In this document: piece by piece, positions 11,248 through 33,645 of the stretch
Numbering within the stretch: position 1 is the first letter of the stretch
Layout: every line of letters begins with the position of its first letter
NCBI GenBank assembly: GCA_963744145.1
Contig: CAVUSO010000001.1
Coordinates: forward strand, 1,934,831-1,998,830
DNA: 64,000 nucleotides
From: an uncultured cyanobacterium
GTDB taxonomy: Bacteria; Cyanobacteriota; Cyanobacteriia; Cyanobacteriales; CAWUOF01
Direction: 5' to 3'
Position numbers and translations under genes: made by a program
The notes under the pieces: generated by a model
What the model saw: the letters and a program-made list of their open reading frames with translations, nothing else
Databases searched by the model: none
Told to the model about the DNA's origin: nothing

Positions 11248-11278
11248 ATAAAAATTTTATAAACAATCGGAGAAAATC

Positions 11279-12892: not shown

Positions 12893-12922
12893 GGAATAGG
12901 CTGTAACCATTGAAGCTGTACA

Positions 12923-17436: not shown

Positions 17437-17450
17437 GTGAAGCTAAAATT

Positions 17451-17774: not shown

Positions 17775-17894
17775 AATCATGAAAATCAAAGGTATTAAAC
17801 AGGGTGTAACAGCGGTAGATCGTGGCAACCCAAACGCGATCGCGCAATTTAGTCATAAAACTGAATTACCACAAAAATACAGCGGATGACCCGT

Positions 17895-18160: not shown

Positions 18161-18300
18161 AACTACCCCATCTTACATCACAGACAACACTGCTATACTT
18201 CATAAATAGGTCATACGCTAGATCTCATCCAGATTGAGAGTCTTTAAAATGTCACAAGGCACATCAAAGATAACGATGCTGGACTTTTAAGGTATTTTTT

Positions 18301-21300
18301 ATGAAAAAATTGCGCGATCGCTATTGGAAAATCGGTTATGGTAGTGATGAAGATAACCTAATCGTTGATTTTTATATCCCGGCTCTTGAATGTGCCCTCC
18401 AATACGATCGCAAAGCCGGATTTTTTAATAGTACCATACTCAGTCGCGTCGCCAGAGGATTAGGAGCATTATTAGCAAATCAAGGACGAATGCGCTTAAT
18501 TATGGGTTGTCAGTTTTCTCCTGAAGACTTACAAGCGGTTCAACAAGGTTACGCATTACGAGAAACCCTAACTCATCGACTAGATCAAGAACTTACTCCA
18601 CCTGTCAACTTTGCCCAGCTCAAACATTTTGAAATCCTCAGTTGGTTGATTCAAAATGAATATCTCGATATTCGCATTGCAATTCCCCTCAAACCTAATG
18701 GTAATCCTGAATCCTCAGAATTGGTATTAGATCCAAAGCATTTATTTCACGAAAAAGTAGGCATTATTTCCGATGTAAATGGCGATCGCCTAGCTTTTAA
18801 TGGTTCCAATAATGAATCAATCGGTGGATGGCAATCTAACCTAGAATCATTTCATGTATTTTTTTCCTGGGATGGTGGTAGCGATTTACAAAGAGTACAA
18901 CATGAATGCGATCGCTTTGAGCGTCTTTGGAATGATGAACTTCCCAATGTGCGAGTATTTGAAATTCCTACAGCAGTAAAACAAAAACTATTAAATTATA
19001 CCCCAAACCAAAAACCCGACTGGAATCCGCAAGCAGAATTTAATACCAGCCCCATCACTTATTTAGAAACAATAAATGAGTTCCAAATCTCTGAAGAAGA
19101 ACTACAAAAAGAACGAGAACAATTTACCCAACTTGCTAATATTCATCACCATCCTGGTTGTCTAGACTTCTCAGTTAAATCAATTCCCATCAAACCTTGG
19201 GCACATCAACTAAAAATCTTGCGACGGATAGCAGCAGAGTTTCCCCGTAATGCTTTAATTGCTGATGAAGTAGGTTTAGGTAAAACCATTGAAACCGGTT
19301 TAATATTGCGTTACTTGCTGCTCTCGAAAAAAGCAACGCGAGTGTTAATTTTAGTACCAGCTAGTGTACAACCTCAGTGGCAAGAAGAAATGCGGGAAAA
19401 ATTTAACTTGCACTTCTGGTCCTATGGCAAAAATGAACTGGTTGATCCGTACCAACAATCAGTCGCGATCGCCGGAAATCTTTGGAATCAGAAAAACCTG
19501 ATCCTTGCATCTAGTCATCTAGTCAGACGCAAAGAACGAATGCAAGAATTACTAAACTCTGAAGCATGGGATTTAATCGTTTTAGATGAAGCACATCACG
19601 CAAGAAGAAAAAGCCCTCAAAATCACAAAGATACTCCCAACCGTCTACTTGAACTAATGGAGCGTCTGAGAACAAATACTCAAGCTTTGCTACTCCTTTC
19701 TGCAACACCAATGCAAATTGATGCGATCGAAATGTTTGATTTAATCAAGTTACTTGGTTTAAAAGGTCATTGGGAATTTCCTGATAATTTTTGTCATTAT
19801 TTCGCCACTCTATCTGAATCACCTAATAAAGATATGCTCAACTTTTGGCAAACCATGTCTACAGATTATTTTGATCATGGTGGTCAGCCTTGTAGTAAAA
19901 TTCAGAAAGGATTAGAAACTAGCGATCGCCTGTTATTTTATCAACTTGAGGATATTTGGCGCAATGGTCAGAAAATAACTAATCCTCAGAAATATCTAGC
20001 CGATGATAATTTTATCAGTGCATCTCAAAGATTTCTGGCAACTAATACACCGATTAAAGACTTAATGTTTCGCCACACCCGCGATACATTGCGAGAATAT
20101 TTTAAACGTGGTTTATTAGCTCAAGATGTACCGATAAGAGAGGTATTTGATCATGCAATTGCTCTCGAAGCAAATCGCGAAGTTCATCTCTATATTGCTG
20201 TTAGTGATTACGTGCGACATTTTTACCGTCTCGCGCAAAAGGAAAACCGCAAAGCCCTGGGTTTTCTAATGACCCTATATCGTAAACGTCTCACCAGTTC
20301 TTTCTATGCGATCGAGAAATCATTACAACGTAGATTAGATTATTTACTTACTCAACAGGGTAGCTTATTAGGAGATGATGACTACAGCGATCTAGAAGAT
20401 GCCGATGATGCTATTATTGAAGGCTTAGAATCCTTCATGGAACCCATAGATCCAAAGGAAATTGAATATTTACAAGATTTATTGCATCAATTTGACAATA
20501 CAGGGGAAGATACCAAGCGATCAAAATTTATCAACAAATTAAGACAAGAATTCTTAGAGCGTGATAGTGCGATCATCTTTACCCAATATACCGATACAAT
20601 GGACTATTTGCGCGATATCTTAACTCAATTATATGGTTCATCAGTTGCCTGTTATTCAGGAAGGGGTGGAGAAATCAATTATGATGGTAAATGGCAAATT
20701 ATCCCCAAGGAAGAAATCAAAAGACGGTTTCGTGATGGGGAAATTAAAATCTTGCTATGTACCGAGTCAGCTAGTGAAGGGCTAAATTTACAAACTTGTG
20801 GAGTTTTATTTAATTATGATATGCCTTGGAATCCGATGCGAGTGGAGCAGCGGATCGGACGGATTGATCGGATTGGTCAAAAATTCTCTCAAGTCAGAAT
20901 CCATAATTTTTACTATGACGGAACAGTAGAAGCAAAAGTCTATCGTAAATTGCGCGATCGCATCCAAGCATTTACCACAGTAGTTGGTAATCTGCAACCC
21001 ATCCTCGCTCTTGTACCTACTTTTATTGAAAAAGCAGTAATGAGTGCCGATCCCTTAGAAGAAAATGTCTTGCTGTCGGAATTTGAGCAAACTTTGGATA
21101 TATCACCTTTACAACCTGCACTTAATGATGCTGTCGCAATGGATGTGGAAGCCGATCTTACTGAACTTCGTCAACCAATCCCATCATCTCCCTTTAATGC
21201 TGAAATAATCGAACAGGTTTTGACGCGATCGCGACTATTACAGAAAGCCGGAATTAGGTTTGAGAAGATCGCAGAAAAGCTGTGGAAATTACAATTAGAA

Positions 21301-21426
21301 GATCAATCTTATCAAGTTACCTTTTATGCCGATACTTTTGACGAACATCCATCTTTGCGATTAATGACTTTTGGTGATCCTATTTTTGAGCTCCTGTTGC
21401 ATAAACGTTTAGCGTCAGCAACCTGA
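18301..21426 (+). CDS. PLD-family nuclease domain fused to SNF2/DEAD-like helicase (defence-associated)
   Basis: HxKxxxxD motif (HEKVGIISD) at the N-terminus. Helicase motifs I (DEVGLGKTIE), II (VLDEAHHARR), III (SATPMQ) and C-terminal helicase block (LLCTESASEGLNLQ, QRIGRIDRIGQ). Confidence 0.8.
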   Translation: MKKLRDRYWKIGYGSDEDNLIVDFYIPALECALQYDRKAGFFNSTILSRVARGLGALLANQGRMRLIMGCQFSPEDLQAVQQGYALRETLTHRLDQELTPPVNFAQLKHFEILSWLIQNEYLDIRIAIPLKPNGNPESSELVLDPKHLFHEKVGIISDVNGDRLAFNGSNNESIGGWQSNLESFHVFFSWDGGSDLQRVQHECDRFERLWNDELPNVRVFEIPTAVKQKLLNYTPNQKPDWNPQAEFNTSPITYLETINEFQISEEELQKEREQFTQLANIHHHPGCLDFSVKSIPIKPWAHQLKILRRIAAEFPRNALIADEVGLGKTIETGLILRYLLLSKKATRVLILVPASVQPQWQEEMREKFNLHFWSYGKNELVDPYQQSVAIAGNLWNQKNLILASSHLVRRKERMQELLNSEAWDLIVLDEAHHARRKSPQNHKDTPNRLLELMERLRTNTQALLLLSATPMQIDAIEMFDLIKLLGLKGHWEFPDNFCHYFATLSESPNKDMLNFWQTMSTDYFDHGGQPCSKIQKGLETSDRLLFYQLEDIWRNGQKITNPQKYLADDNFISASQRFLATNTPIKDLMFRHTRDTLREYFKRGLLAQDVPIREVFDHAIALEANREVHLYIAVSDYVRHFYRLAQKENRKALGFLMTLYRKRLTSSFYAIEKSLQRRLDYLLTQQGSLLGDDDYSDLEDADDAIIEGLESFMEPIDPKEIEYLQDLLHQFDNTGEDTKRSKFINKLRQEFLERDSAIIFTQYTDTMDYLRDILTQLYGSSVACYSGRGGEINYDGKWQIIPKEEIKRRFRDGEIKILLCTESASEGLNLQTCGVLFNYDMPWNPMRVEQRIGRIDRIGQKFSQVRIHNFYYDGTVEAKVYRKLRDRIQAFTTVVGNLQPILALVPTFIEKAVMSADPLEENVLLSEFEQTLDISPLQPALNDAVAMDVEADLTELRQPIPSSPFNAEIIEQVLTRSRLLQKAGIRFEKIAEKLWKLQLEDQSYQVTFYADTFDEHPSLRLMTFGDPIFELLLHKRLASAT

Positions 21427-21540: not shown

Positions 21541-22044
21541 TTGGGTTTAGATCCTAAACTGATGCAAGTGACCTATAAGCAACAGGAAATCACCTTCAGA
21601 CCCAAAGAATATGCTCTGCTCCAACTATTTCTGCAACATCCTCAGCGCATTTTTAGCCGCAATACCATTATCGATCAGCTTTGGTCGATCGACCAATCGC
21701 CAACGGAAGCAGCCGTAACAACTTTGATCAAAGACTTGCGTCGTCGGTTAAAAGCCGCAGGAATTACCGAAGAAGTGATTGAGACAGTTCATGGGTTGGG
21801 ATATCGACTTACAACAGCACCAACAGTTGAAAAGAGCAGTTCTCCGACTTCTTTGGGAAAATCTAGATTGCCTGGATGTGAATCTGAATCAAAAATCGGG
21901 GAACTACCGAAAGTTTCAGAGGATAGTTTAGTAGAGCGATTTAGAGTGTCCTTAAAGCAGAGATTAAGAGTCTTAGAGGAAATGGAAGTCGCGCTACACC
22001 ATCAACTCAGGAGATCAGTTCAAATTCTCTTGTGCTGGCAATAG
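21541..22044 (+). CDS. stand-alone OmpR/PhoB-type winged-helix DNA-binding domain protein (no receiver)
   Basis: trans_reg_C-like segment EITFRPKEYALLQLFLQHPQRIFSRNTIIDQLW...VTTLIKDLRRRL...VHGLGYRL. Start codon is a non-ATG in the track; the true start may be the MQVTYK Met. Confidence 0.55.
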   Translation: MGLDPKLMQVTYKQQEITFRPKEYALLQLFLQHPQRIFSRNTIIDQLWSIDQSPTEAAVTTLIKDLRRRLKAAGITEEVIETVHGLGYRLTTAPTVEKSSSPTSLGKSRLPGCESESKIGELPKVSEDSLVERFRVSLKQRLRVLEEMEVALHHQLRRSVQILLCWQ

Positions 22045-22385
22045 TCAGCGATGCTACATTTGCAAAAAGACTTCAGCAGGAAGCACCACGATGGGGACTG
22101 AGGCTGGAAGTCATCAGCGATCGTTCAACAGTGCAACATCGATTAACACAAACCACCCCAGAAGTAATTCTGCTGGCTCTAGATGGTGATGGGGCGGACA
22201 ATCCCTTGGCGCTATTGCAAACAATAAAGGCAGATTATCCAGCCATGCCGATTGTCATCCTGTCAGATCCTGAATCAATGCGACGAGCATTTGCCGTTGG
22301 AGCCAATGATGTGCTTGGAAAACCTGTGGTTGAAGCCGAGTTGGTGACAAGGATGATCAGCCGAATCAAGCAATTAGGCCAATAA
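22032..22385 (+). CDS. stand-alone receiver-like (CheY-like) domain, partly degenerate acid pocket
   Basis: LAIVSDA...ILLALDGDG...IVILSD...GANDVLGKP matches the receiver topology but the N-terminal DD pair is reduced to SD. GTG start. Confidence 0.45.
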   Translation: MLAIVSDATFAKRLQQEAPRWGLRLEVISDRSTVQHRLTQTTPEVILLALDGDGADNPLALLQTIKADYPAMPIVILSDPESMRRAFAVGANDVLGKPVVEAELVTRMISRIKQLGQ

Positions 22386-22392
22386 GCAGATT

Positions 22393-22773
22393 TTGCTCAT
22401 TGACCATGAGGCTTCTGTTCGAGAAGTTTTGCAGCTTTGCTTAAGCAGTGTTGATGGTTGGCAAATTATATCCGTTGCTTCTATCCAAGCCGGCTTAGAA
22501 AAGCTGTGCATTGAGCGTGTAGATGCTATTCTTCTAGATACAGAAAACTTAGAAACTGATGGAATTAGTTTTATTAAAAAACTTAAAAATGACCCATTTA
22601 CTCGATCGATTCCAGTTATCTTCATTACAGCTAAGGCAAAAAGCTTTTTGTCGCATCAACTGCAAGCATTGGGGATTGCGGGTGTGATGGCGAAACCATT
22701 TAATGCCAGGACTTTACCGATTCAATTGGCTGGAATGTTGAATTGGAGTCTGGGTTCTAAATTTGTTGATTGA
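22393..22773 (+). CDS. stand-alone response-regulator receiver domain
   Basis: ILLIDHEAS...AILLDTENLETDGISF...PVIFITAK...GVMAKPF. TTG start. Confidence 0.5.
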   Translation: MLIDHEASVREVLQLCLSSVDGWQIISVASIQAGLEKLCIERVDAILLDTENLETDGISFIKKLKNDPFTRSIPVIFITAKAKSFLSHQLQALGIAGVMAKPFNARTLPIQLAGMLNWSLGSKFVD

Positions 22774-22926
22774 GCGATTCTTTATGATTTTATTTCTTGT
22801 TTATAAGGGCAGGGTAAACGCATCTAAATTGGGATAAATTGTCCTTGATAAAAAAGCACTGATCATGATAATCATTCAACAACTATCCTGGCTAACTCTC
22901 TTCATCTGAGGTAATGCTTCCATGTC

Positions 22927-23490
22927 TCAATGCTTTAAAATCACTTTGGCAGGAATCCCTATTGCAATTGAATTTGGCGGGATATCTTTGGTTACTACCG
23001 CACCAGCAGCAACAATAGAATTATCTCCAATTGTTACACCAGCTAAAATAGTTGCCCTAGATGCAATCCAAACATTATTACCAATAACAATTGGTTTATA
23101 TTCATGCTCTCTCGGATATTCTTTAACAGGCAAAGAGAAGTTGATCAGATTTTTTAAGCTTAAATATTCTGTGGGCAATTGCTCATTTTCCACCGCAGCT
23201 ATTTCATGCACTTTTAATCGACCAGTTTCCAGAATTACATAAGAAGAAATACTCACATATTGACCGATATCAATTCCACCTCCACCACCCATAACTACAC
23301 CATAATTAATAGATGTATAATCACCAATTTTAATTTTTTCAGGAGAGTACATTCTTGGCCACGCATATACTAATACTGATTTACCTAACTCCTTAACCAG
23401 AAGAGATAAAAATATATATCTGATATAGAGCAAGATGACATCGGTACTATTAAATATCCCTAGGGCTATTTTTTTGAATATGTTACTCAT
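22927..23490 (-). CDS. hexapeptide-repeat (left-handed beta-helix) acyl/acetyltransferase
   Basis: [48 protein letters not shown] hexapeptide repeats (WcaF/MAT-like). Confidence 0.75.
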
Positions 23491-23541
23491 AATCCATTTA
23501 ATTGCTAATGTTCAAAGTTCTCAGACTTGCTTAAATCTTTT

Positions 23542-24279
23542 TCAAAGTCTCTTGGCTAAAATAGTTACATATTTGAGATTTTCACCATTAAAAAAACTCC
23601 GATGATTATAAACATGAGTATCATGCAGTTTTAAAGTGCCTTCTGAGATCGCCTGACGGTAAAAGCGGATAAATTCAGGAGGATTACTTTGATTTTCGTA
23701 GCTAGTCTGGGCAATATTAAACATTACCCATGCCCCGGCTTGAATAAGATTCAATGCCAACTTAAAAGCATCAACAGGGATGTGATCGGAACTCAGAGCA
23801 GAACAACAGACTAAACAATTTAATTGTTGCTCTTTAATCCGGTTTTTGGTTGATTCTGATAACTGAGTTAAATCTTCAACGATATAATCTTGGTAAACCC
23901 CTGGACATTCTCTATTCGCGGCTACTGCTGCTTCAGGAACAATATCTATTCCGACAATAGCAGTAATACCCAATTTGGCTAATGCTTTACCAAATAAACC
24001 ACTACCCGCACCAAGTTCTAATATTTTGAGTTTGTCAATTGGTAAGCCTGTTTCTTTTACTTTTTCCACTAACAGAGATGACATGATTTCAGGCGATCGA
24101 TATTTGAGTATTTCAATAGCAATATATTCATACAACCCTGGAATACTATATACATCGCCATAGTCGTGTAATCTTAAGCGACGCTCTTGGCCATTTTGAG
24201 TAAGGAAAAAATACTCTTCATTAATAGATAAATTTCCTACATGATCGGGCAATCTGATTTGAAAATTAGTTTGAGTCAT
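23542..24279 (-). CDS. class I SAM-dependent methyltransferase
   Basis: Motif I ILELGAGSGLFGKALAKLG. Acidic residue after beta2 (GIDIVPEA). Confidence 0.7.
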   Translation of the reverse strand: MTQTNFQIRLPDHVGNLSINEEYFFLTQNGQERRLRLHDYGDVYSIPGLYEYIAIEILKYRSPEIMSSLLVEKVKETGLPIDKLKILELGAGSGLFGKALAKLGITAIVGIDIVPEAAVAANRECPGVYQDYIVEDLTQLSESTKNRIKEQQLNCLVCCSALSSDHIPVDAFKLALNLIQAGAWVMFNIAQTSYENQSNPPEFIRFYRQAISEGTLKLHDTHVYNHRSFFNGENLKYVTILAKRL

Positions 24280-24357
24280 AATATCAATTAGCTAAATTTT
24301 TGCTAGAGCTGAAGCAGGAAAAATCAATTGTCACCCAAGTAAAGAGTCGATTAATTA

Positions 24358-25050
24358 TTATCCTGTCGGAATTGCTAACGCTTTACCGTTATCGCTAGCA
24401 CCAATCTGTAAGATAAAAGGAATAGCTCTAATTACCCAATCTTGATCAGAAATGTAATTAGCTGCTTTTTCCTTACCATAGATAGTTTCTAAGGTATCAG
24501 TGTGAATTGTTCCGGGCCAAAGGGAAACTGTAGCCATACCAGATGGTAATTCTTGAGCAAAGGCTTTAGTTAATCCTTCAATAGCCCATTTACTAGCGCA
24601 GTAAGGAGTAGCATTAGCAGTGGTATAACGTCCCCAACCAGCACTAAAGTTAATAATTATTCCCCTATTTTGCTCCACCATTGCAGGGACAAAATGGCGA
24701 ATTACGTTAGCTACGCCTTTGATATTAATATCAATAACGCGATCGAATACTTCACTTTTAATTTTCCAGAGGGGCAAAAGTTCGTGAACGATACCTGCAT
24801 TATTTATGATTAAGTCAGGAGGTTCATATTGGGAGAGTATGGTTTTACTCCAAGCTTCTACTTGAGCTTCATTGGCAACATCTACAGAGGTAAAGTGATG
24901 ATGGGGCTGGGGGAATTGCTGTTGCAGATTTGCGATCGCTTCATGGTTAGTAGCACAACCTATTATAGTATGTCCTAACTGGATCAACTGTTCAGTCATT
25001 ACTCTACCTAAACCCCGACTTACGCCAGTAATTAGAATGATTTTGGTCAT
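24358..25050 (-). CDS. short-chain dehydrogenase/reductase (SDR) family oxidoreductase
   Basis: TGxxxGxG (ILITGVSRGLGRVM), NNAG, catalytic YxxxK (YCASKWAIEGL). Confidence 0.8.
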   Translation of the reverse strand: MTKIILITGVSRGLGRVMTEQLIQLGHTIIGCATNHEAIANLQQQFPQPHHHFTSVDVANEAQVEAWSKTILSQYEPPDLIINNAGIVHELLPLWKIKSEVFDRVIDINIKGVANVIRHFVPAMVEQNRGIIINFSAGWGRYTTANATPYCASKWAIEGLTKAFAQELPSGMATVSLWPGTIHTDTLETIYGKEKAANYISDQDWVIRAIPFILQIGASDNGKALAIPTG

Positions 25051-25059
25051 AATTATAGA

Positions 25060-26022
25060 TTAACCCACAGATAACAAGCTTCTGTTCGCAACACAGTAGT
25101 TGCTATACCAATAACTCATTGGCTTTGACCAAAAATATTGGGCATAACCTTCGCTCACAGCTTCACTACTTTCTCGGTACAGAAGAGAAGGAGAGTTATC
25201 AACCACATAAAATGTATGTCCTTGCCGATCTTGGTAGATCGGATTTTCTATTTTGGTGGCATGAGTACCTTGAATTGCTCTGCCGGTATCGGCTGCTGCA
25301 TCGATAATCCAGCCCGTAGATTTCATGGAATTAAGCATTTGCAAAGTAACAATTGGTGCATCAGATTCAGCTATTTCTACCGTATTAATAAAAATATCAT
25401 AATTTTGAAACTCTTGCTTGAGTAAATCCACATTACTTCTTCTACGCAACAATGGTTCGATTCCTTTACTAGCCAAATATTTTAATACACCATAAGCTAC
25501 ATTACCAGAACCAAATACTGCTACTTGGTCTTTTTCTATAATCCCGCCTCGCAACATAATTGCCTGCATAACTGAGGCATAACCAGCCAAAATACTATTT
25601 TTGTAGGTTATGTCTCTAGGAATATTCAGCTTTTCGGATTTTCCTTGATAAACGCGAATAGAAATTCGATTTGTCACATCAAAAAGTTGGAGCTTTTTCG
25701 GTTTAGCACAATGTTCTGTAAAGTGCTTTCCTGATGCACCAAACGGATGAATCCAACCAGCTAATCCTTGGTTTTCTCTAAAGTATTGATAGTCTTGGGG
25801 TTGAGGTACTTTAATACAGTAAATTACATCTGCCCAAGCAAAGAGACTTTCTCTGGAATAACCGCCAGCTTCTCCATACGCCCAATCGGGAATACCTAAA
25901 TTTTCTCCATAACCTTGTTCAAATCTACGTTCGTCTTCTGTGCTACAATAGGGTAAATCTTTCGGTAATAAACCGACTCTTTTTTCATTAGGGAAACTTG
26001 GCTTGATATAGGCAATCTTCAT
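25060..26022 (-). CDS. AlaDH/PNT-family NAD(P)-dependent enzyme (alanine dehydrogenase / saccharopine dehydrogenase / N5-(1-carboxyethyl)ornithine synthase-like)
   Basis: N-terminal KIAYIKPSFPNEKRVGLLP resembles the AlaDH/PNT N-terminal domain. Rossmann motif VAVFGSGNVAYG. Confidence 0.5.
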   Translation of the reverse strand: MKIAYIKPSFPNEKRVGLLPKDLPYCSTEDERRFEQGYGENLGIPDWAYGEAGGYSRESLFAWADVIYCIKVPQPQDYQYFRENQGLAGWIHPFGASGKHFTEHCAKPKKLQLFDVTNRISIRVYQGKSEKLNIPRDITYKNSILAGYASVMQAIMLRGGIIEKDQVAVFGSGNVAYGVLKYLASKGIEPLLRRRSNVDLLKQEFQNYDIFINTVEIAESDAPIVTLQMLNSMKSTGWIIDAAADTGRAIQGTHATKIENPIYQDRQGHTFYVVDNSPSLLYRESSEAVSEGYAQYFWSKPMSYWYSNYCVANRSLLSVG

Positions 26023-26039
26023 TTGATTTTCCTCAACTA

Positions 26040-27149
26040 TTAAAATTCTTGGTGTTGAAAATTTCTTCTGCCGACAAAGAAGTCCCAGTCTACATAACCT
26101 GAATTGAGCTTTCTGTCTCCTGTTGAGGGGTCAAAAGCTGTTCTTCCATGAAGGATTCTAAAGTTTTGGAAGAGTAGACAGTTATGTGGCTTCAGACGAA
26201 ACTGATATTGATAATCTGGTTTTTTGAGATAGCGGAAGAAAGTATTAAAAGCTTGGTAGAAATCTTCTAATTGCTCGAAGGGTAAATGAGGTCTACAGTT
26301 TCTTTTGCTAAATCGCACTGTACTAACATTACCATCTCGATCGCATTCCAGGATGGGAGAAGTGTTACAAAAACGATATTGATGATGGCGATCGACTAAC
26401 CAAAATTGTACGGGAGTTTCTCCTAATAGTTGAAAGTAATTTGGATAATCTTGGCGAAAGTCTTGAGCCACTCGAAATCCATCTACCAGAGTAGATTCAC
26501 CCCCGATTGCTTGGTGTTCTAAACAATAGAGAAACTGGACGAGATGATGTCCTCCCCAGTAACTGAGATCGTTATGGAGGGGTAAACTACATCCATCACG
26601 AGGAGGTAAAGATTCTTTCGTTTTGGCTTGGGGTTGTAGAGCAAATATTGTCCCGTAATCAACGTTATGAATTGGCCCAATAGATGAAATAAAAGATTCT
26701 AATTCGTCAGGTGGGATGTTTTCTAAAACGACGAATCCGAGACTAAATAATTGATCAATCCAAGAATTATCATTAATCGCCTGAACATCATAGCTTTTGG
26801 GCGATGGTAATTCTAGTTGTGTCCGATCCCATAAAATATAGCTCTCAGACTTTACTTGTGGTTGAGGATCGTAAGCATTCTTTAGTAACCAATCAACAGA
26901 GAATATACTACGATAGGCAGGAGTTTCATCCCAGTCAATGATTAAGGTTTCCCCATTGAACTCCACTGATAAAGGCTGCGGTTGTTCTGGGCGATCGCTA
27001 ATATTAGGATCGGAGAGTTGTTGATAGGGTGCTGGATACCGACAACTCGGACAATTTTCCCGTAACCAGATGTAATGAAAGCGTTTATCACCAACAGTAA
27101 TAAACTTTTCTGAGGTCATAGTTGTGGTTTTTTCTTTTTGAAGTTTCAT
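26040..27149 (-). CDS. Fe(II)/2-oxoglutarate dioxygenase, gamma-butyrobetaine hydroxylase-like (TauD/BBOX family with DUF971-like N-terminal domain)
   Basis: N-terminal FHYIWLRENCPSC (BBOX/DUF971-like). HxD...H facial triad region HNDLSYWGGHH...ILHGR. Paralog of 27166..28287. Probable real start at about 27119 (MTSEKF). Confidence 0.65.
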   Translation of the reverse strand: MKLQKEKTTTMTSEKFITVGDKRFHYIWLRENCPSCRYPAPYQQLSDPNISDRPEQPQPLSVEFNGETLIIDWDETPAYRSIFSVDWLLKNAYDPQPQVKSESYILWDRTQLELPSPKSYDVQAINDNSWIDQLFSLGFVVLENIPPDELESFISSIGPIHNVDYGTIFALQPQAKTKESLPPRDGCSLPLHNDLSYWGGHHLVQFLYCLEHQAIGGESTLVDGFRVAQDFRQDYPNYFQLLGETPVQFWLVDRHHQYRFCNTSPILECDRDGNVSTVRFSKRNCRPHLPFEQLEDFYQAFNTFFRYLKKPDYQYQFRLKPHNCLLFQNFRILHGRTAFDPSTGDRKLNSGYVDWDFFVGRRNFQHQEF

Positions 27150-27165
27150 ATTACTCTAGGATTTT

Positions 27166-28287
27166 TTACCGACTAAGAATAGATAAGCGACTGAGTAATT
27201 CTGTCCGTTCGATAAACGTACTTTGCATAAAGCGTTCTCCGGTATATTCGGTACGCCCATGTAGCACCCGATGGTTATCAAAAATCAGCAGATCTCCTGA
27301 ATTGAACTTGATCTTAACTCTATATTCATTGCAGTTACACAGTTCCATAAAGGTGCGGTATGCCTCGTAATAAGGCTTTATTATCTCTGAAGGGAAGTTA
27401 AAGGGCTGAATAGCACGCGAAGAAAAGCGAATTAACTTTACTTCGCCCAAACAATTGAGTTCGATAATCGCGCCTTCTCCCATTAAATCCGCATCAGTGT
27501 GTTGGAAGCGAAATTGTACAGGTAAAGTTGAGAGCAGTTTAAATTTCTCTGGGGCTTGTTGGCGTAATACTTCTGCTATTTTAAAACCATCAATCAGACT
27601 ATTCTCTCCTCCAGTAGCACCAGTGATTAAGTAGTGAAAGAGTAAATAAGCAGGTGGAGAAGCAAAATAAGATAAATCGGTATGGGGTAAAATCCTTAAA
27701 TTAGTAAACGCATCGGTTTCAGGATTCGCTACATTTTTAACATTATTACACTTACCCCAATAGGTTTCACGCACACAACCTAGCTGAGATGCTATTTCTA
27801 AGATAGTACCTGGCTCGGTAGGAACATTTTGTAGTACAGCAATTCCCTCATCACGTACAGCTAATAACCAGTCTTTCAGTTGGGCTTCATTCTGCCAAAT
27901 ATCGCGATAGTCAGCTTTGGTTATTGAAGTTGCTTTTTCTGAACCCCATAATTTAGGTTGCCAAGATTTGGACTGTGTTTTATTAGAGTAGGAATGTTCG
28001 CGTAACCAGAGCGAATCGAATTTGCTAACATGACTTTCATTAGCCCAGACAATTTCGATTTGTTGTTCGTGATTGATGCTGACTTGATCGGGATAGGGTT
28101 CAAGCGGAAGAGTCAAAGGATCGATGGTACGCTGACAGTTGACACGGGGGGTTGCTGGGCAATTGTCTCGTAGCCAAACATAATGAAATTGACTGTGAAA
28201 TCCATCTTCCCATTCAACCTGAAGCAAGTCTTTTTCAGTTTTCAGTTTGAGGACAGATCTATCTGAATTAGTTGCTACTGTTAACAT
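27166..28287 (-). CDS. Fe(II)/2-oxoglutarate dioxygenase, gamma-butyrobetaine hydroxylase-like (paralog)
   Basis: FHYVWLRDNCP, HTDLSYFASPP, RVLHGRTEY. Same architecture as 26040..27149. Confidence 0.65.
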   Translation of the reverse strand: MLTVATNSDRSVLKLKTEKDLLQVEWEDGFHSQFHYVWLRDNCPATPRVNCQRTIDPLTLPLEPYPDQVSINHEQQIEIVWANESHVSKFDSLWLREHSYSNKTQSKSWQPKLWGSEKATSITKADYRDIWQNEAQLKDWLLAVRDEGIAVLQNVPTEPGTILEIASQLGCVRETYWGKCNNVKNVANPETDAFTNLRILPHTDLSYFASPPAYLLFHYLITGATGGENSLIDGFKIAEVLRQQAPEKFKLLSTLPVQFRFQHTDADLMGEGAIIELNCLGEVKLIRFSSRAIQPFNFPSEIIKPYYEAYRTFMELCNCNEYRVKIKFNSGDLLIFDNHRVLHGRTEYTGERFMQSTFIERTELLSRLSILSR

Positions 28288-29281
28288 CGGTTTCTCCTGA
28301 TTGTGTCATTAATGTTTTAACGATTTCTTGCCAAGCTAGATCGCAAATTCGACTACGACTATCTTGGGTATTGGTGGCAATGTGAGGAAAAATTAAGCAA
28401 TTATCAAGCTTATGCAGAGGATCATTAACAGGTAGGGGTTCTGGTTCGGTGACATCTAACAGTGCCATCGCGATTAAACCCTTTTCTAAGGCTATATATA
28501 GGTGATCTTGATTACAAATTGCTCCTCTGGCAATATTGATAAAAATTCCCGATCGCTTCATCTTCTCAAATGCTTTTGTGTCAAACATATTTTGGCTAGA
28601 GTTGTTGAGAGAACAGCAGACGATCACAGCATCTGATTCAGTAAGCAGTTGCTCAAAACTGACATATTCAAGTGAATACTGATGTTCTAATTCTGGCTTC
28701 TGATGTGGAGAAAAATAGAGGATACGAGAATTAAATCCCACCAGACGTTTAACGATCGCACTGCCAATCTTACCCATACCAACGATCCCAATTGTCAGTT
28801 GTGATAAAGCAAACCCATCTAAATTCCACAAATAATATGGCGTTACATTATTATCACTTAGTTGGAGATTTTTGTCAATACGTCTAATCCCAATTAATAA
28901 AAGAGCGATCGCGTAATCGGCAATAGCATCTGTGGTTACTCCGGGTACATTAGCAACCTGAACACCATGTTTCTGACAAGCATTGAGATCGACATTTTCG
29001 ATCCCATTACTCATCACTGAAACTATTTTAAGAGTCTCTCCCGCAGCTTGAATTAAGGTGGCATCAATTCGATCTTCATAGGTGCATAAAATAGCATCAT
29101 AGTTGTTTTGAGTAACTTTGCTCAGTAGTTCTTGATAAGTCATCTGACGTTTTTCGGTAAAACAATCAATAGCAAAGTAATCGGGAAATTTTTCTCTTGA
29201 TTGCTGAGGAATCAGAGCAGTTATTAGAATTCGATAATGCACAATATTGGTTTTGGTTTTTACCTGTTCTAAGGGTTTCAT
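28268..29281 (-). CDS. D-isomer-specific 2-hydroxyacid dehydrogenase family (glyoxylate/hydroxypyruvate reductase-like)
   Basis: NAD-binding GIVGMGKIGSAIVKRL. Catalytic region ...FINIARG...HIATNT. Confidence 0.75.
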   Translation of the reverse strand: MKPLEQVKTKTNIVHYRILITALIPQQSREKFPDYFAIDCFTEKRQMTYQELLSKVTQNNYDAILCTYEDRIDATLIQAAGETLKIVSVMSNGIENVDLNACQKHGVQVANVPGVTTDAIADYAIALLLIGIRRIDKNLQLSDNNVTPYYLWNLDGFALSQLTIGIVGMGKIGSAIVKRLVGFNSRILYFSPHQKPELEHQYSLEYVSFEQLLTESDAVIVCCSLNNSSQNMFDTKAFEKMKRSGIFINIARGAICNQDHLYIALEKGLIAMALLDVTEPEPLPVNDPLHKLDNCLIFPHIATNTQDSRSRICDLAWQEIVKTLMTQSGETDVNSSN

Positions 29282-29300
29282 TTGCTGATGTTAGCAATGT

Positions 29301-29879
29301 TTATTTAACTGGGATAAATTGATATTGAGGTTTTGGTTGAGCAAAAATTTGTTTGACTATAGGGACAAAAAAATCTAGGTCGAAAGAGTCATAATTGGGA
29401 TCGAAGCTGTTTTGATCATATTTTTCACAGAAATCTATTGTGGCTTGATAATAGGGAGAATCTCGATATTTTTCTCGGACATCGCGATCGCCTCCCAGAT
29501 AGTGGGCGCAATAATACTTTTGAAACAAGGAGTGATGTTTAACTATCCAATAAGTCTGTTCTGACACATAGGGCTTAAGAATAGCAGCAGCCATTTCTCC
29601 ATGATTGTAAGGAGCTAAGATATCGCCAATATCGTGAAGTAAAGCAGCAGCAATTGTCTCGACGTTTTCACCTTCCCGAGCAGCTCTGGTAGCTGCTTGC
29701 AGAGAATGTTCATAACGAGTTACTTGGTAGCCATCAAAGGAAGTTTTCAATGGTTCTAAAGCTTTTAAAATCCGTTCTGGAACATCTTGTGTTGCTTCAG
29801 CGGCTAAGGCATATAGAAGCACAAAGTCTTCTTTTGTTCCATGTTCCATAGCAGTAAAATTAACTTGGTTCATGCTCAT
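29301..29879 (-). CDS. HD-domain protein (PhnZ/TmpB/MIOX-like mixed-valent diiron oxygenase candidate, or phosphohydrolase)
   Basis: HD motif AALLHDIGD with upstream His (YEHSLQAATRA) and downstream HH (VKHHSLF). About 190 aa, the size of PhnZ-like proteins. Confidence 0.5.
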   Translation of the reverse strand: MSMNQVNFTAMEHGTKEDFVLLYALAAEATQDVPERILKALEPLKTSFDGYQVTRYEHSLQAATRAAREGENVETIAAALLHDIGDILAPYNHGEMAAAILKPYVSEQTYWIVKHHSLFQKYYCAHYLGGDRDVREKYRDSPYYQATIDFCEKYDQNSFDPNYDSFDLDFFVPIVKQIFAQPKPQYQFIPVK

Positions 29880-31273
29880 ACCTCCTGAAAAAAAGGTGTT
29901 AAATTATTCGCTGGAGTTTCGACAAAAGGTAACTTTTGATTCTCGAAGAAATCTTCAACCTTTCCTAACTCACGAATAACTTCAATTTTTCCTTTGCTAT
30001 AAGCTATTTCCGCCGGATAATTATGGAGAGCAAAATTAGTTACGGAGTGATTGAAACCATAAGCTCCACAATTATAAATTACTAGGCGATCGCCTATTTC
30101 TACATCTTGAGGTACTTCCACATCTTCTACCATAATGTCTAAAGGTGTAGGTAGTTTTCCGGCGAGAGTTACTGTTTCGGTATTGAATTTCTCTTTACCC
30201 AAAACATCCATAAATTTGCTGGCTTTTTTCATAGACATAGATATTCTTAACAGTTGATGAATGCCACCATCCAAAATTAAAAACTTTTTGCCTTGGGATT
30301 CTTTGATGTCAAGAATTTCTGCAACATAAGAACCAGATTCGCAGACTAAATAACGACCTAATTCAAAAAAATAGTCGTATCGATAGGGATTATTATCACT
30401 AATATTCTGCATTTGCTTGCCAAATTCTTCAAGATTAAATTCGGCATCAATAGCATTGTAAGGAACACCCATTCCCCCACCGAAATCGACTATAGATATC
30501 AGATAGCCTTGATCTCGCAGACGATTAGCAATTCTAATAGTATTCTGACAAGAAGCAACCAATAGTTGGTAATCAAGAATATTACTTTCGGTAAAAATAT
30601 GAATACCTTTGAGGTTAATATTTGGCAGAGATACAATCTCCCCGATCGCTTCTGAAACTATCTGTTCATCAATCCCAAATTTACTAGCACTTTGGCAAAT
30701 TAATTGGATCGGAGCAGTTGATTCTGTATTCAGAGTACAACTACTACTTCCTTGACTTACTTCACAACTATTACTGGTGCGATATAAGGGATTAATTCTT
30801 ACCAGGATATCTTGAATGATTCCATATTTTGCTGCCAAAGAATTTAAACGACGTGCTTCATTGATAGATTCAACAACAATTAAACGAATGCCTTGTTTCA
30901 AGGCAAATGATAATTCTCGGTTGGTTTTCCCTGGACTTGTAAATACAATCTGTTGGGGAGAAAAACCAGCTTTAATAGCTGCAACTAATTCGCCAATAGA
31001 ACTAATATCTGCTGAAGCTCCCAGCTTAGCTAAATGATGACAAATAGACAAATTACTATTTGCCTTGAGAGTGTAATGAACTCGAAAATGCTCTGGCAAA
31101 AAGGTTGTCAAACTATTAAATTGACGTTCAATTTTGTCAAAGTCATAAAAATATAGTGGAGTTTCATATTGCCCAACTAATCTTTCAATTTTTTGGTGCT
31201 GCCGAGATGTAGATTGTATAAATTCAGTCATCATATTGATTGTTGTTGTAACATTGACCAGTGAACTGAACAT
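29876..31273 (-). CDS. PLP-dependent decarboxylase, Orn/DAP/Arg decarboxylase family 2 (fold-type III, LysA-like)
   Basis: PLP-lysine motif YTLKANSNLSICHHLAKLG. C-terminal beta-barrel motifs (CESGS, GAYGF). Confidence 0.75.
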   Translation of the reverse strand: MFSSLVNVTTTINMMTEFIQSTSRQHQKIERLVGQYETPLYFYDFDKIERQFNSLTTFLPEHFRVHYTLKANSNLSICHHLAKLGASADISSIGELVAAIKAGFSPQQIVFTSPGKTNRELSFALKQGIRLIVVESINEARRLNSLAAKYGIIQDILVRINPLYRTSNSCEVSQGSSSCTLNTESTAPIQLICQSASKFGIDEQIVSEAIGEIVSLPNINLKGIHIFTESNILDYQLLVASCQNTIRIANRLRDQGYLISIVDFGGGMGVPYNAIDAEFNLEEFGKQMQNISDNNPYRYDYFFELGRYLVCESGSYVAEILDIKESQGKKFLILDGGIHQLLRISMSMKKASKFMDVLGKEKFNTETVTLAGKLPTPLDIMVEDVEVPQDVEIGDRLVIYNCGAYGFNHSVTNFALHNYPAEIAYSKGKIEVIRELGKVEDFFENQKLPFVETPANNLTPFFQEV

Positions 31274-31421
31274 TTTGGACCAGGTGGTTTCAACCGCAGG
31301 CAGCTACAAAAACGAAATTTGCCTGTGCAGGTGACAAAACCCTTGATTGGTTAGTCAAGACTGATAATAGAGGAAAAATATAAGAAATATATGAGAAGGA
31401 CAAGATTTCCAATTCTCTTAA

Positions 31422-33215
31422 TCATTCCGCTTCCTGCTGAACGGGTAGCCTGAAATAAAAGGTGCTTCCTGCTCCCAACCCACTCTCTACCCAAATCTGT
31501 CCTTGGTGCTGTTGCACAATACTCTTGCAAATGGCAAGTCCTAACCCCGTTCCTCGCTTCTTTTGGGAATCCTGCACATCCACTTGCTGAAATCGACCAA
31601 AGATGGTTTCGAGTTTATCCGCAGGAATCCCAAGTCCCTGATCCTGAATGGAGAAGAGAATATAGGGTAGTGGGGTATGGATGTTTTCCCTGACTTTCTC
31701 GCTCTCCCAATCCTTCGCTTCGACAACCTCTGCTTTTACCCACACTGTACTATTAGCCGGAGAAAACTTGATGGCATTGCTCAACAGGTTGGTTAATGTT
31801 TGCACGATCGCATCTGGTGCAGCCCATACCGAGACGGTCAGCGGTGTTCAATCCAGATGGATTTTGGCAGCATCGGCGATCGGCTGTATGGTTTCAACTC
31901 CTTGCTGGATCAGATCCGTCACCTCACAAGCTGCCATCTCCAGCGCGGTTGTGCGAGACTCTAACCGCTCCAGATCGAGGATGTGATTAACTAATCGCAC
32001 CAGTCGCTCGCTATTATTGAGGGCGATCGAAATCAGATGGTTAAACTTTTCAGAATTGTTGTGATAGAGCCCTGATTCCAGGATGCCGAGAGAACCGTGA
32101 ATAGCAGTCAGTGGGGTTCGGAGTTCATGACTAACAATGGAGATAAATTCATCTTTCATCTGCTCGATCACATGGCGATCGCTAATGTCTTGAATTTGAG
32201 CAATAAAGTAGATCGGTTCTCCCTGGTGATCTCGGACAAGTGATAAATTCAACAGAGACCAAACCACATAACCTTGTTGATGGAAATACCGCTTCTGTAC
32301 TTGGTAGGTTTGAATTTCACCTGCCAGGACTCTTTGGATTTGCTCTAAATTAATGACCAGATCATCAGGATGGGTAATTGCTTGAAAGGTTTTGGTCAAC
32401 AATTCGGCTTGACTGTAGCCCAGAATTTCTGAAAGCGATCGATTGACGCGAATCAATTGACCTTCAAGTGCTATTAATGCAATACCAATGGGAGCATCTT
32501 CAAAAGCACTGCGGAACCGTTCTTCAGTACGTTGGAGTTCCTGGGTGCGTGCCGCGATCTGGTCCTCTAGCTCTCTGGAATAATCGGTTAAAATTCGCTC
32601 GGCTTCTCGTCGTTTCGTGATGTCTTGAAAGGCATTAATAGCATAGAGAACCTGCTCTACCGGATAAAGTTGATTGGTTCCTGCTTGGTAGATTTGATCG
32701 GCTTGAGACTGTCGTAAAGGCGACAAGTTGAAAATATTTCCTCCTCCTAAAATGGTTTCACCCACTTGATTGAGGAGAATTTGATTTCCAGTGGCATCAA
32801 AGACGCTGATTCCGACTGGAACATTACTCAGGAGCTTCTCAAATCGTCGTTCGCTCTTTTGCAGCGATCAGAACGACGTTTCAATCTGATGCGCCATCCG
32901 TTGAAAAGCGTTCGTTAGACCTGCGACTTCACTGACGACCGAGTTTTCGACTGGATCATCTAACTGTCCGGTGGCGATCGCCACTGCTGCTTGCTGCAAG
33001 CGATAAATCGGTCTGGCAATCCAACCAGCACTCAACATTCCTGTCCCCGCAGCGATGAGTAGAGTCAGCCCACACAAGAGCCATGTTCGCTGGGTATTAG
33101 CCTGAATTTTTGCCATGAAATCGGATTCGGGAATGATCACCACCACCAGCCAATCCAACCCGTATTGATCTTGGTAAGGAGTTACCTGGACAAACTGCCG
33201 CTGGTGGTTACTCAT
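31422..33215 (-). pseudogene. sensor histidine kinase (TM-HAMP-PAS-HisKA-HATPase) interrupted by two in-frame TGA codons
   Basis: Three consecutive same-frame ORFs (33215-32868 HAMP, 32765-31848 PAS+HisKA with SHELRTPLTAI, 31805-31422 HATPase with NLLSNAIKF...GLGL). The first two each end in TGA. No frameshift between them. Confidence 0.65.
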
Positions 33216-33363
33216 CAGCGTCAGTTGTTGGGTTATTTGCAGGGTGCTTCTCCTGTCTCGTTGCTAAAGAAGATAGATTGGAGGGAGGGATTCAGGATGA
33301 TTTATTGCCAAAATTGCTGTTGCAGTTGCTTAAAGTCTTTAAATTGCCACTCCCACCCCTAAA

Positions 33364-33548
33364 GCAGGGCTGTTTCATGCTCGATTCTCAGATAATCGAC
33401 CTAACCCCCCAACCCTCTTCCCTGCGAGGGAAGGGGGAGTAATTCTTATGGTTAAATTGATCGGATTTAATCAGAGTCATTCTGCTCCCCTTTCCTAAAA
33501 GGAAAGGGGTTGGGGGAGAGGTGTTCTGGTAGCATGAAACAGCCCTGC
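33364..33548. repeat. about 185 bp palindromic MITE-like element with 18 bp perfect terminal inverted repeats and internal G/C-rich hairpins
   Basis: gcagggctgtttcatgct ... agcatgaaacagccctgc termini. Internal ccccaaccctcttccctgcgagggaaggggg and ctcccctttcctaaaaggaaaggggttggggg hairpins. Confidence 0.6.
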
Positions 33549-33552
33549 TAAA

Positions 33553-33645
33553 ACAGGGTGAGTAAAGCCAACCCCGATCGATCTATTCTGCTCCGACAAT
33601 TGGTGCAAATCCTTGACGTTGAACATTCTCTGTTACTGTTCGCGG
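33553..33645 (+). repeat. putA 3' end / downstream segment duplicated at 21427-21512
   Basis: About 85 bp near-identical direct repeat. This copy is part of the intact putA gene. Confidence 0.7.

Follow-up and report, generated by a model that had tools for sequence, protein, structure and literature searches.

What is made by nine tailoring and redox enzymes whose genes lie side by side on one strand of a cyanobacterial genome, with no recognizable assembly-line synthase among them? The question is raised by a stretch of 64 000 nt from an uncultured cyanobacterium (contig CAVUSO010000001.1 of assembly GCA_963744145.1, positions 1,934,831 to 1,998,830; hereafter 'the window', numbered from its first base). 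In order of transcription the genes encode a pyridoxal phosphate (PLP)-dependent decarboxylase, an HD-domain protein, a 2-hydroxyacid dehydrogenase (2HADH), two Fe(II)/2-oxoglutarate (2OG) dioxygenases (TauD_A and TauD_B), an AlaDH/PNT-family dehydrogenase, a short-chain dehydrogenase/reductase (SDR), an S-adenosylmethionine (SAM)-dependent methyltransferase and a hexapeptide-repeat acetyltransferase (Table 1). The operon very probably makes a small nitrogen-containing metabolite. The reading favoured here, which we hold with slightly better than even confidence, is that it builds a small, polar, nitrogen-rich compound independently of non-ribosomal peptide synthetases (NRPSs) and polyketide synthases (PKSs), by the steps set out below, and that the role of this compound is most likely that of a compatible solute or other exported molecule.

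The ORF listing comprised nine intact ORFs on the minus strand with the same limits as in the original prediction, which had proposed a contiguous same-strand operon with small or negative intergenic gaps. This was borne out, the gaps being −4, 19, −20, 16, 17, 9, 78 and 51 nt in transcription order (−20 to +78 nt, some of the genes overlapping), and each of the domain assignments that accompanied the proposal was recovered with Pfam and NCBIfam models. None of the nine proteins reached an NCBIfam equivalog cut-off. A scan of positions 22000–33600 for promoter and terminator consensus sequences gave counts not above the shuffled expectation and was uninformative on the limits of the operon; the lack of signals above this level inside the block is consistent with one transcription unit, without being proof of it. 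There was no match in tRNA and Rfam scans of the whole window.

Positions 22942–31423 of the window were colinear with a metagenome contig (L001) that carries the same nine genes at 93.9 % nucleotide identity, the similarity ending at 22942. A scan by alignment to the AlaDH/PNT protein, covering one genome per species, yielded 19 loci, all of them cyanobacterial, and the further metagenome contigs were likewise cyanobacterial; the hosts of the 19 loci were Lyngbya, Okeania, Microcoleaceae, Lyngbya sp. PCC 8106, Spirulina, Scytonema hofmanni UTEX 2349, Symploca and Caldora. The gene set recurred in at least 15 cyanobacterial genomes or metagenome-assembled genomes (MAGs), and a tblastn search of all loci with the nine proteins revealed gene order conserved across genera at 41–93 % protein identity. 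Because order and co-localization are conserved in this way, the arrangement is not due to chance and the cluster is real. The original prediction had named one outcome that would count against it, that homologues of these genes never lie together elsewhere; this was checked, and the homologues were co-localized across many cyanobacterial genomes. That the nine genes are unrelated neighbours without a common pathway might be argued from the fact that each family is individually common, and that the HD family is found alone in many other phyla. The conserved order, the strict co-occurrence of modules described below and the overlapping genes speak against such a view, and since the synteny is conserved a chance neighbourhood can be excluded, an explanation of this kind being next to impossible.

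The window itself is cyanobacterial, its closest homologues coming from Microcoleaceae, Okeania and Lyngbya. The HIP1 palindrome GCGATCGC occurred 69 times in it, compared with 0.33 expected from shuffles. Five copies lie inside the operon (24932, 26991, 28905, 29484 and 30086), which is therefore native and not foreign DNA.

Comparison of the loci revealed a modular anatomy. The decarboxylase, the AlaDH/PNT dehydrogenase, the SDR and the methyltransferase form a near-universal core that was present in almost all of the approximately 20 cyanobacterial loci, and the smallest versions consist of this core and a single 2OG oxygenase, as in L017 (decarboxylase, PhyH, AlaDH/PNT, SDR and methyltransferase). 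The HD protein and TauD_B form one accessory module: they occurred together in 10 of the 10 clusters with an HD gene, and TauD_B was found in none of the five clusters without one. In Okeania (L004) the TauD_B gene directly follows the HD gene with a gap of 1 nt. The second module consists of 2HADH and TauD_A, which were always found together (in the window, L001, L003/L016, L015 and, partly, L021), and a gene for acyl or sulfo transfer was present only in clusters that have this pair. The hexapeptide acetyltransferase was limited to the window and L001, its place being taken by a Sulfotransfer_5 protein in L003/L016 and L015. An ATP-grasp ligase gene lies between the HD and TauD_B genes in L007, L008, L009, L011 and L019, and further accessories across the clusters included PhyH, a WbmS-like protein and DUF2785, an AsnB-like amidotransferase and an isochorismatase in Spirulina, and a second methyltransferase, a class II aldolase and another TauD protein in Scytonema. 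The nine-gene unit of the original prediction is thus a real operon, but not an invariant one, being made up of four core genes, two two-gene modules and an accessory acetyltransferase. Biosynthetic clusters undergoing diversification typically look like this, with tailoring genes shuffled around a fixed core.

The first of the core enzymes, the decarboxylase, contained the Pfam domains Orn_Arg_deC_N and Orn_DAP_Arg_deC and scored 269.9 bits with the lysA model TIGR01048, below the cut-off of 297.9. Its best solved relative was BtrK (186 bits), followed by diaminopimelate (DAP) decarboxylases (DAPDCs). In TmDAPDC, residues K46, E246, R249 and R285 represent the PLP lysine, the glutamate and arginine of the ExGR motif and a second arginine, of which the two arginines hold DAP by its distal carboxylate; the glutamate of the CES motif binds its distal amino group (PMC8277567). 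The PLP lysine (YTLKANSN), the ExGR motif (FELGRY) and the second arginine (HQLLR) were kept in 13 of 13 cluster orthologues. The position of the CES motif, which reads GPVCESSD in the DAPDC of H. pylori, was occupied by P-T-P (GKLPTPLD) in 12 of the 13 and by M-T-S in Scytonema, with threonine at the position of the glutamate in all of them. The same exchange in the Thermotoga DAPDC (E315T) leads to loss of activity on DAP and a preference for 2-aminopimelate (PMC8277567).

The decarboxylase shares its fold, PLP lysine, ExGR motif and GAYG motif with both LysA and BtrK. It has kept the two distal-carboxylate arginines of LysA, but the glutamate and cysteine of the CES motif are replaced by threonine and proline. 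A housekeeping LysA was ruled out by this change and by the subthreshold lysA score, because the residue that reads the DAP amine is lost. The x-T-P sequence resembles the C-T-P of BtrK, which however lacks the second arginine that is retained here. BtrK-like carrier-protein chemistry was also rejected: the operon has no carrier-protein gene, and its gaps of 9–78 nt are too small for a carrier-protein ORF. Judged from these motifs, the substrate should be an α-amino acid with a distal carboxylate but without the distal primary amine of DAP. In one Okeania assembly (GCA_010672745; L004 7592-8954) the decarboxylase gene is split into two ORFs by a frameshift or an assembly error; it is intact in a sister Okeania assembly whose genes are otherwise identical (L005 7593-8954).

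The AlaDH/PNT dehydrogenase is the enzyme that could supply such a substrate. Matches to AlaDh_PNT_N (36.9 bits) and AlaDh_PNT_C (57.2 bits) were both above cut-off, and the protein of 320 aa has the two-domain architecture of N5-(carboxyethyl)ornithine synthase (CEOS). CEOS uses NADPH to condense pyruvate reductively with ornithine or lysine at the side-chain amine. Homologues of the dehydrogenase at E<1e-5 numbered only 123, and a tight clade of about 95 (55–94 % identity; 76–93 % among the first four orthologues aligned) was almost wholly cyanobacterial and is called CEOS by JGI, NCBI and UniRef. The next group outside the clade, the nearest that is not cyanobacterial, was 35–39 % identical and included a Lactobacillales protein. 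Only 18 of 1.84 billion representatives reached E≤1e-30, the clade collapsing to a single full-length cluster at 50 % identity. The likeness to the Lactococcus lactis enzyme (ceo; EC 1.5.1.24) lies in the AlaDH/PNT family, the length of approximately 310–320 residues and the N- and C-terminal domains; the difference is that the cyanobacterial clade sits in a multi-enzyme operon, always beside a methyltransferase. Non-cyanobacterial CEOS-like genes again adjoin a methyltransferase, of the SET-domain type in L036–L038 and of class I in Ca. Magnetoglobus, although the small clusters around them have a very different content.

Opine-type reductive condensation is the best reading of the AlaDH/PNT enzyme that its sequence suggests, and a CEOS-type product, for example an N-(1-carboxyethyl)diamino acid, would match the substrate predicted for the decarboxylase. 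The original proposal that a decarboxylase and an opine-type dehydrogenase act together was reinforced in this respect, by the public CEOS name of the dehydrogenase as well as by the arginines kept and the DAP-amine reader lost in the decarboxylase. In L036–L038 (7131-12764) the genes present encode a 452-aa protein, the SET-domain methyltransferase (4-nt overlap with the CEOS-like gene), the CEOS-like enzyme, a radical SAM protein and a choline-kinase-like protein, and in Ca. Magnetoglobus (L039 5469-12077) an SDR, a split thiamine diphosphate-dependent enzyme, an aminotransferase, the class I methyltransferase, a split CEOS-like gene and a PrpD-family gene were found.

Reductive condensation followed by PLP-dependent decarboxylation on an ornithine decarboxylase (ODC)/DAPDC fold is also the logic of carboxy(nor)spermidine dehydrogenase and decarboxylase (CANSDH/CANSDC) and of the cyanobacterial CAPADH/CAPADC spermidine route. 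The operon might then be a polyamine branch in which the dehydrogenase and decarboxylase add an aminoalkyl group and the remaining enzymes make hydroxylated, methylated and acetylated polyamines. A decarboxylase that keeps the distal-carboxylate site and has no DAP-amine site would suit this scheme, and polyamines are known to undergo N-acetylation, methylation and hydroxylation. CANSDH, however, is of the saccharopine-dehydrogenase type, unlike the AlaDH/PNT enzyme found here; the decarboxylase is nearest to BtrK and DAPDC, no NspC model being among its NCBIfam matches, and seven further enzymes follow. The patchy spread of the cluster, whose clade has about 100 members, nearly all of them from benthic filamentous cyanobacteria, is also unlike that of a housekeeping route, and the retained arginines argue for a carboxylate in the product. 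A polyamine branch is therefore improbable.

The two dioxygenases are 30 % identical to one another. TauD_A possesses the N-terminal domain of γ-butyrobetaine hydroxylase (GBBH)-like proteins (GBBH-like_N, 47.6 bits, cut-off 22.8), for which TauD_B scored 19.1 bits and remained below the cut-off. With the NCBIfam models TauD_A scored 307.5 bits for BBOX (TIGR02409, cut-off 414.75), which was its best match, 216.6 for TMLD (cut-off 268.3) and 289.1 for TmpA (cut-off 400); the scores of TauD_B were 202.9, 167.3 and 215, respectively, all again below the cut-offs. Both were nearest to TmpA among solved structures, followed by BBOX1 and DfmD (182 bits for TmpA and 159 bits for BBOX1 in the case of TauD_A). 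The Fe triad and the 2OG arginine (H202, D204, H347 and R360 of hBBOX) were kept in TauD_A, TauD_B and all aligned orthologues. The aromatic cage that accommodates trimethylammonium in hBBOX is formed by Y177, W181, Y194 and Y366 (PMC4736438), and these positions were W/N/F/F in TauD_A and Y/F/R/Y in TauD_B, three of the four being aromatic in each. The Zn site was reduced, C40 being missing from both proteins and C43 kept only in TauD_B. With TMLH and BBOX of the carnitine pathway the dioxygenases have in common the TauD core and, less clearly in TauD_B, the GBBH-like N-terminal domain, and their cage positions are aromatic in part; they differ from them in their scores below cut-off, in a carboxylate site (N191/N292) that is not conserved and in the reduced Zn site. 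Both are predicted to be active enzymes of the GBBH lineage that are not BBOX, TMLH or TmpA, and a bulky cationic substrate is possible for either.

The HD protein had the Pfam domain HD and only weak NCBIfam matches, to TmpB (34.9 bits, cut-off 300) and Phn-HD (41.5 bits, cut-off 214.6). The diiron HD oxygenases carry a six-ligand H..HD..H..H..D motif, and PhnZ and TmpB in addition a YxxE substrate loop (PMC8177086). Across 37 HD homologues, H58, H82, H93 and H116 were invariant and D83 and D155 were invariant or nearly so, giving H...HD...H...H...D; in a profile search H93 and H116 aligned to histidines of TmpB across an 11-residue deletion. An AlphaFold2 model of the protein (predicted local distance difference test score, pLDDT, 92.6) was used as a Foldseek query, and the top ten matches were TmpB/PhnZ structures (E 3e-6 to 1e-4, template modelling (TM) score 0.62-0.66), followed by MIOX, with HD hydrolases reaching a TM score of only ~0.3. 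By its model the HD protein is structurally a TmpB/PhnZ-type HD oxygenase, and putatively so in function. A look-up of the exact sequence of the HD protein from the window returned no record.

Because the HD protein strictly co-occurs with TauD_B, the pair suggests that a hydroxylation is succeeded by the oxidative cleavage of a bond. A cascade of a 2OG hydroxylase and an HD oxygenase that cleaves a C–P or C–C bond is established chemistry (PMC8177086; PMC12186529). The likeness to TmpA/TmpB and to PhnY/PhnZ, in which a mixed-valent diiron enzyme cleaves the C–P bond of aminophosphonates, consists of the model fold, the H..HD..H..H..D ligands and a 2OG hydroxylase that is encoded with the HD gene (adjacent to it in Okeania). 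The system differs from them in missing the equivalog cut-offs, in having no YxxE loop and no acid-binding asparagines, and in its setting, which is biosynthetic rather than catabolic, with no genes for phosphonate biosynthesis or uptake in the window. SmaO/SmaX, which convert aspartate to aminomalonate in a pathway for a peptide that is made by the ribosome and modified after translation (RiPP), resemble it in that a biosynthetic 2OG hydroxylase is followed by an HD oxygenase and C–C cleavage beside an acid group (PMC12186529). SmaX differs in acting on a peptide with a single iron and without the HD aspartate, as opposed to the full six ligands and the lack of a precursor peptide here. Of the original prediction of BBOX-like hydroxylation next to a quaternary or tertiary amine, the hydroxylation is retained as a proposed step, but this step would not be isolated, as the HD protein, which had been left uninterpreted, points to an ensuing oxidative bond cleavage. 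A quaternary-amine substrate is only partly borne out, the cage positions being retained in part and both acid-binding asparagines of BBOX and TmpA being replaced.

These same likenesses raise the alternative of a catabolic operon that takes up and degrades a quaternary amine, an opine or an aminophosphonate from the environment, with TauD_B and the HD protein acting like TmpA/TmpB or PhnY/PhnZ to set free phosphate or a carbon/nitrogen skeleton that the cell can use, and the AlaDH/PNT enzyme working oxidatively. Besides the phosphonate-degrading TmpA and TmpB/PhnZ being the best solved relatives of the dioxygenases and of the HD protein, an intact dCache sensor kinase is encoded directly upstream of the operon in L001, dCache domains often binding amino acids and amines, and genes for a PstS-like binding protein and a sulfatase/phosphodiesterase lie near two clusters. 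The TmpA, TmpB, PhnZ and BBOX cut-offs were, however, missed widely (34.9 against 300 for TmpB, 215–289 against 400 for TmpA), the acid-binding asparagines are replaced and the YxxE loop is absent. An uptake transporter is part of no cluster, and most clusters lack the kinase, which in the window is a pseudogene. The methyltransferase, ATP-grasp ligase, AsnB-like protein, sulfotransferase and acetyltransferase are building enzymes, and the motif EDKxxxxxNS of phosphoenolpyruvate (PEP) mutase is absent from the window. Degradation is thus assigned a low probability. Phosphonate catabolism or biosynthesis in particular, prompted by the likeness to TmpA, TmpB, PhnZ and DfmD, was rejected as the main reading on the low equivalog scores, the missing asparagine pair and YxxE loop, and the lack of a PepM motif; a Pfam search across the window found no genes for PEP mutase, a phosphonate transporter or C–P lyase.

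Four enzymes remain. The 2HADH had the Pfam domains 2-Hacid_dh and 2-Hacid_dh_C and, as its best NCBIfam match, glyoxylate reductase (232.6 bits, cut-off 455). The SDR (adh_short, 146.9 bits) reached no NCBIfam model and was found in nearly all clusters at 61–93 % identity. The methyltransferase had 121 homologues, most of them cyanobacterial, together with proteins from Ca. Magnetomorum and Ca. Magnetoglobus; METTL27 was its only relative in the PDB by sequence (E 0.008). The recurrent pairing with a methyltransferase, including the SET-domain enzyme, favours N-methylation. The acetyltransferase (Hexapep, 52.1 bits) is predicted to contain left-handed β-helix hexapeptide repeats, and its best NCBIfam matches were to models for the WcaF, galactoside, maltose and WbbJ O-acetyltransferases, none of which reached its cut-off. 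The original prediction had assumed N-acetylation. Acetylation of a hydroxyl group is more likely judging from the sequence, because the nearest families are O-acetyltransferases of sugars and polysaccharides and because a sulfotransferase replaces the acetyltransferase in sister clusters.

Taken in order, the enzymes suggest the following route. The CEOS-like enzyme would couple a 2-oxo acid, for example pyruvate, to an amine by reduction with NAD(P)H, giving an opine-type N-(1-carboxyalkyl) diamino acid, and 2HADH would possibly supply, alter or reduce the keto-acid partner. The decarboxylase would then grip the new distal carboxylate by its two arginines and strip off the α-carboxyl group, leaving an N-(aminoalkyl) amino acid, which the methyltransferase would methylate, most plausibly on nitrogen. 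TauD_B would hydroxylate a carbon and the HD oxygenase would follow with a four-electron oxidative cleavage that leaves a carboxylate, as in the TmpA/TmpB, PhnY/PhnZ and SmaO/SmaX precedents. Finally, TauD_A would add a second hydroxyl group for O-acetylation by the hexapeptide transferase or, in sister clusters, O-sulfation. The SDR might adjust one alcohol or ketone.

The role of the product is suggested by the neighbours of the cluster. An orthologous MscS-type channel of 372 aa (52–79 % identity) flanks it in two arrangements, on the downstream side in L001 and immediately upstream in L008/L031 and L015, and EamA transporter genes are located in or beside the clusters of L030, L031 and L015. 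These neighbours weakly favour a compatible solute or an exported molecule. The main alternative on this point is a metallophore of the opine type, similar to staphylopine, pseudopaline or the mugineic acids, in which the hydroxylases and 2HADH would make α-hydroxy-carboxylate ligands and EamA would secrete the product. An opine-synthase-like enzyme is indeed the signature gene of the family, and EamA/DMT transporters accompany the cluster in Scytonema (L030), a Lyngbya MAG (L031) and L015; pseudopaline is exported by an EamA-family protein. Mugineic-acid synthesis requires a keto-acid reductase and two 2OG dioxygenases, and the PrpD-family gene beside the CEOS-like gene in Ca. Magnetoglobus can be counted on the same side. 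Genes for a nicotianamine-synthase-like enzyme, a TonB-dependent receptor and a metal-uptake ABC system were, however, all absent from the clusters examined and from their flanks. Methylation, O-acetylation and O-sulfation would moreover mask or remove metal ligands, and the flanking MscS channels suit an osmolyte better, so that a metallophore is considered unlikely.

If the favoured reading of a compatible solute or exported molecule is carried to a structure, the product would be a new zwitterionic class of N-methylated, hydroxylated and O-acetylated (in sister clusters O-sulfated) N-(carboxyalkyl)diamine compatible solutes, with TauD_B and the HD protein as a TmpA/TmpB-type cascade on a non-phosphonate substrate and the DAPDC-derived enzyme as a dedicated opine decarboxylase. 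This fuller version is tentative and on present evidence rather doubtful.

Several observations weigh against the proposed route and role. The asparagines N191 and N292 of hBBOX are also Asn in TmpA, but TauD_A has T/S and TauD_B has E(D)/S in their place, and such replacement of the acid-binding residues suggests that the substrates of the two dioxygenases differ from the BBOX and TmpA models. In the HD protein the YxxE loop is absent, Y24 and E27 of PhnZ aligning with F48 and Y51, and dinuclear HD hydrolases can have the same six ligands (PMC8177086). The HD family is large (5351 matches), and members approximately 60 % identical in actinobacteria, Chloroflexota and others stand alone among unrelated neighbours, so that the HD protein may have a general function that was merely borrowed by the cluster. 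The CEOS assignment is based on the names given by the sources, family membership and approximately 35–39 % identity to the group that contains the Lactobacillales protein. An AlphaFold2 model of the methyltransferase (pLDDT 94.2) retrieved generic class I enzymes with N-, O- and C-acceptors alike in Foldseek, which fits O- as well as N-methylation. The SDR has no assigned step, every chemical step is proposed by analogy, and in the window neither a transporter or channel adjoining the operon nor a copy of the MscS gene was found, the sensor kinase being a pseudogene.

The stand-alone HD genes (L026, L027/L028, L033 and L034/L035) adjoin genes for Amidohydro_2 and Rieske proteins, for a P450 and UbiA, gyrB or uvrD. 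Among the distant HD homologues from Saccharopolyspora, Chloroflexota and two metagenome genomes no shared neighbours were found.

The original prediction that the cluster resembles no characterized pathway held in several respects: no NCBIfam equivalog was reached, a full-text literature search found no description of the cluster, no curated NCBIfam model names any of the nine proteins as a pathway member, and the homologues are co-localized in many genomes. Its status as uncharacterized is provisional. The parts come from known enzyme families and their chemical logic has precedents, making this an NRPS- and PKS-independent, amino-acid-derived pathway rather than a new category. Benthic filamentous cyanobacteria are one of the richest sources of natural products, the mining of which centres on NRPS, PKS and RiPP genes, and the cluster is without those hallmarks and would escape standard mining. 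As it is conserved and diversified nevertheless, spanning Okeania, Lyngbya, Microcoleaceae, Symploca, Moorena, Roseofilum, Spirulina and Scytonema, which are mostly marine and filamentous, the cluster family probably marks an overlooked metabolite family. It opens the questions of what a CEOS-type opine synthase does outside the lactic acid bacteria, of how a DAP decarboxylase has been retuned by a natural Glu-to-Thr change that mirrors an engineered specificity switch, and of whether pairs of an HD oxygenase and a GBBH-like hydroxylase act on non-phosphonate substrates. Should the product be an osmolyte or a metal chelator, it would be relevant to the way in which mat-forming marine cyanobacteria withstand salt or trace-metal stress.

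The features of the operon and of its surroundings are collected in Table 1. Pfam scans of the window found no NRPS, PKS or PEP mutase and no transporter beside the operon.

Table 1. Genes of the operon and other features of the window, with the MscS-type channel genes of related loci
Feature	Position	Strand	Basis
PLP decarboxylase, alanine-racemase/ODC fold, DAPDC-derived, not LysA; first operon gene; core	29876-31273	-	Pfam, NCBIfam, PDB, motifs
HD-domain protein, TmpB/PhnZ-type oxygenase fold; putative diiron oxygenase for oxidative bond cleavage	29301-29879	-	Pfam HD, AlphaFold2/Foldseek
D-isomer-specific 2HADH, glyoxylate/hydroxypyruvate reductase- and PGDH-like; accessory	28268-29281	-	Pfam, NCBIfam
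TauD_A, GBBH/TmpA-like Fe(II)/2OG dioxygenase; accessory, paired with 2HADH	27166-28287	-	Pfam TauD and GBBH-like_N
TauD_B, GBBH/TmpA-like Fe(II)/2OG dioxygenase; obligate partner of HD protein	26040-27149	-	Pfam TauD
AlaDH/PNT dehydrogenase, CEOS type, putative opine synthase; signature gene of cluster family	25060-26022	-	Pfam AlaDh_PNT_N/C
Classical SDR; core	24358-25050	-	Pfam adh_short
Class I SAM-dependent methyltransferase, small cluster-restricted family; core	23542-24279	-	Pfam Methyltransf_23, Methyltransf_25
Hexapeptide-repeat acetyltransferase, probably O-acetyltransferase; last operon gene; tailoring	22927-23490	-	Pfam Hexapep
dCache-HAMP-PAS histidine kinase remnant (pseudogene)	31422-33349	-	tblastn with L001 kinase, translation, Pfam
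PutA; upstream, beyond kinase remnant	33583-36558		
Phycobilisome genes	43506-44574		
DUF499 protein	7580-10819	+	
DUF7680	10819-11247	+	
Two Uma2 endonuclease genes, interrupting defence-like set	11279-12582		
YhaV/PrlF toxin-antitoxin pair, interrupting defence-like set	12923-13695	-	
DUF1156 DNA methylase	14500-17436	+	
107-aa ORF	17451-17774	+	
SNF2/ResIII helicase	18301-21426	+	
MscS-type channel (related loci)	L001 17007-18060; L008/L031/L032 3946-5064; L015 1554-2669		

The pseudogene upstream of the operon corresponds to the intact 960-aa dCache-HAMP-PAS kinase found in the same place in L001. Residues 319–959 of the latter matched positions 33245–31428 of the window in one frame at 78 % identity (tblastn); the N-terminal third with the sensor part is lost and there are two in-frame stop codons, Pfam recognizing HAMP, PAS with HisKA, and HATPase_c on three separate ORFs, although the operon itself is intact. 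Abutting the 3′ end of the operon on the plus strand (21541-22773) are a 167-aa ORF with an OmpR-type DNA-binding domain only and two receiver-only ORFs (117 and 126 aa). These three two-component ORFs, whose order is odd, may be rearranged fragments of response regulators, and L001 has no counterpart there. Further downstream, the plus-strand genes at 7580-21426 form a defence-island-like set. A PIN-domain gene (37113-37544) and an IS110-family transposase gene (39141-39962) lie a few kb upstream of the operon. With these two genes, and the break in similarity to L001 at 22942, the cluster appears to be located in a variable region of the genome.

Two other loci in the window are of lesser note. 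A fused DegT/DnrJ-type aminotransferase-methyltransferase of 630 aa is encoded at 3381-5273 on the minus strand and is adjoined by a short EamA-family ORF (5534-6295) and an AraC regulator (6494-7480), so that 3381-7480 may be a small tailoring locus. A gene of the Asp/Asn β-hydroxylase family (40420-41214, minus strand) is divergent from that of a 497-aa amidohydrolase (41297-42790).

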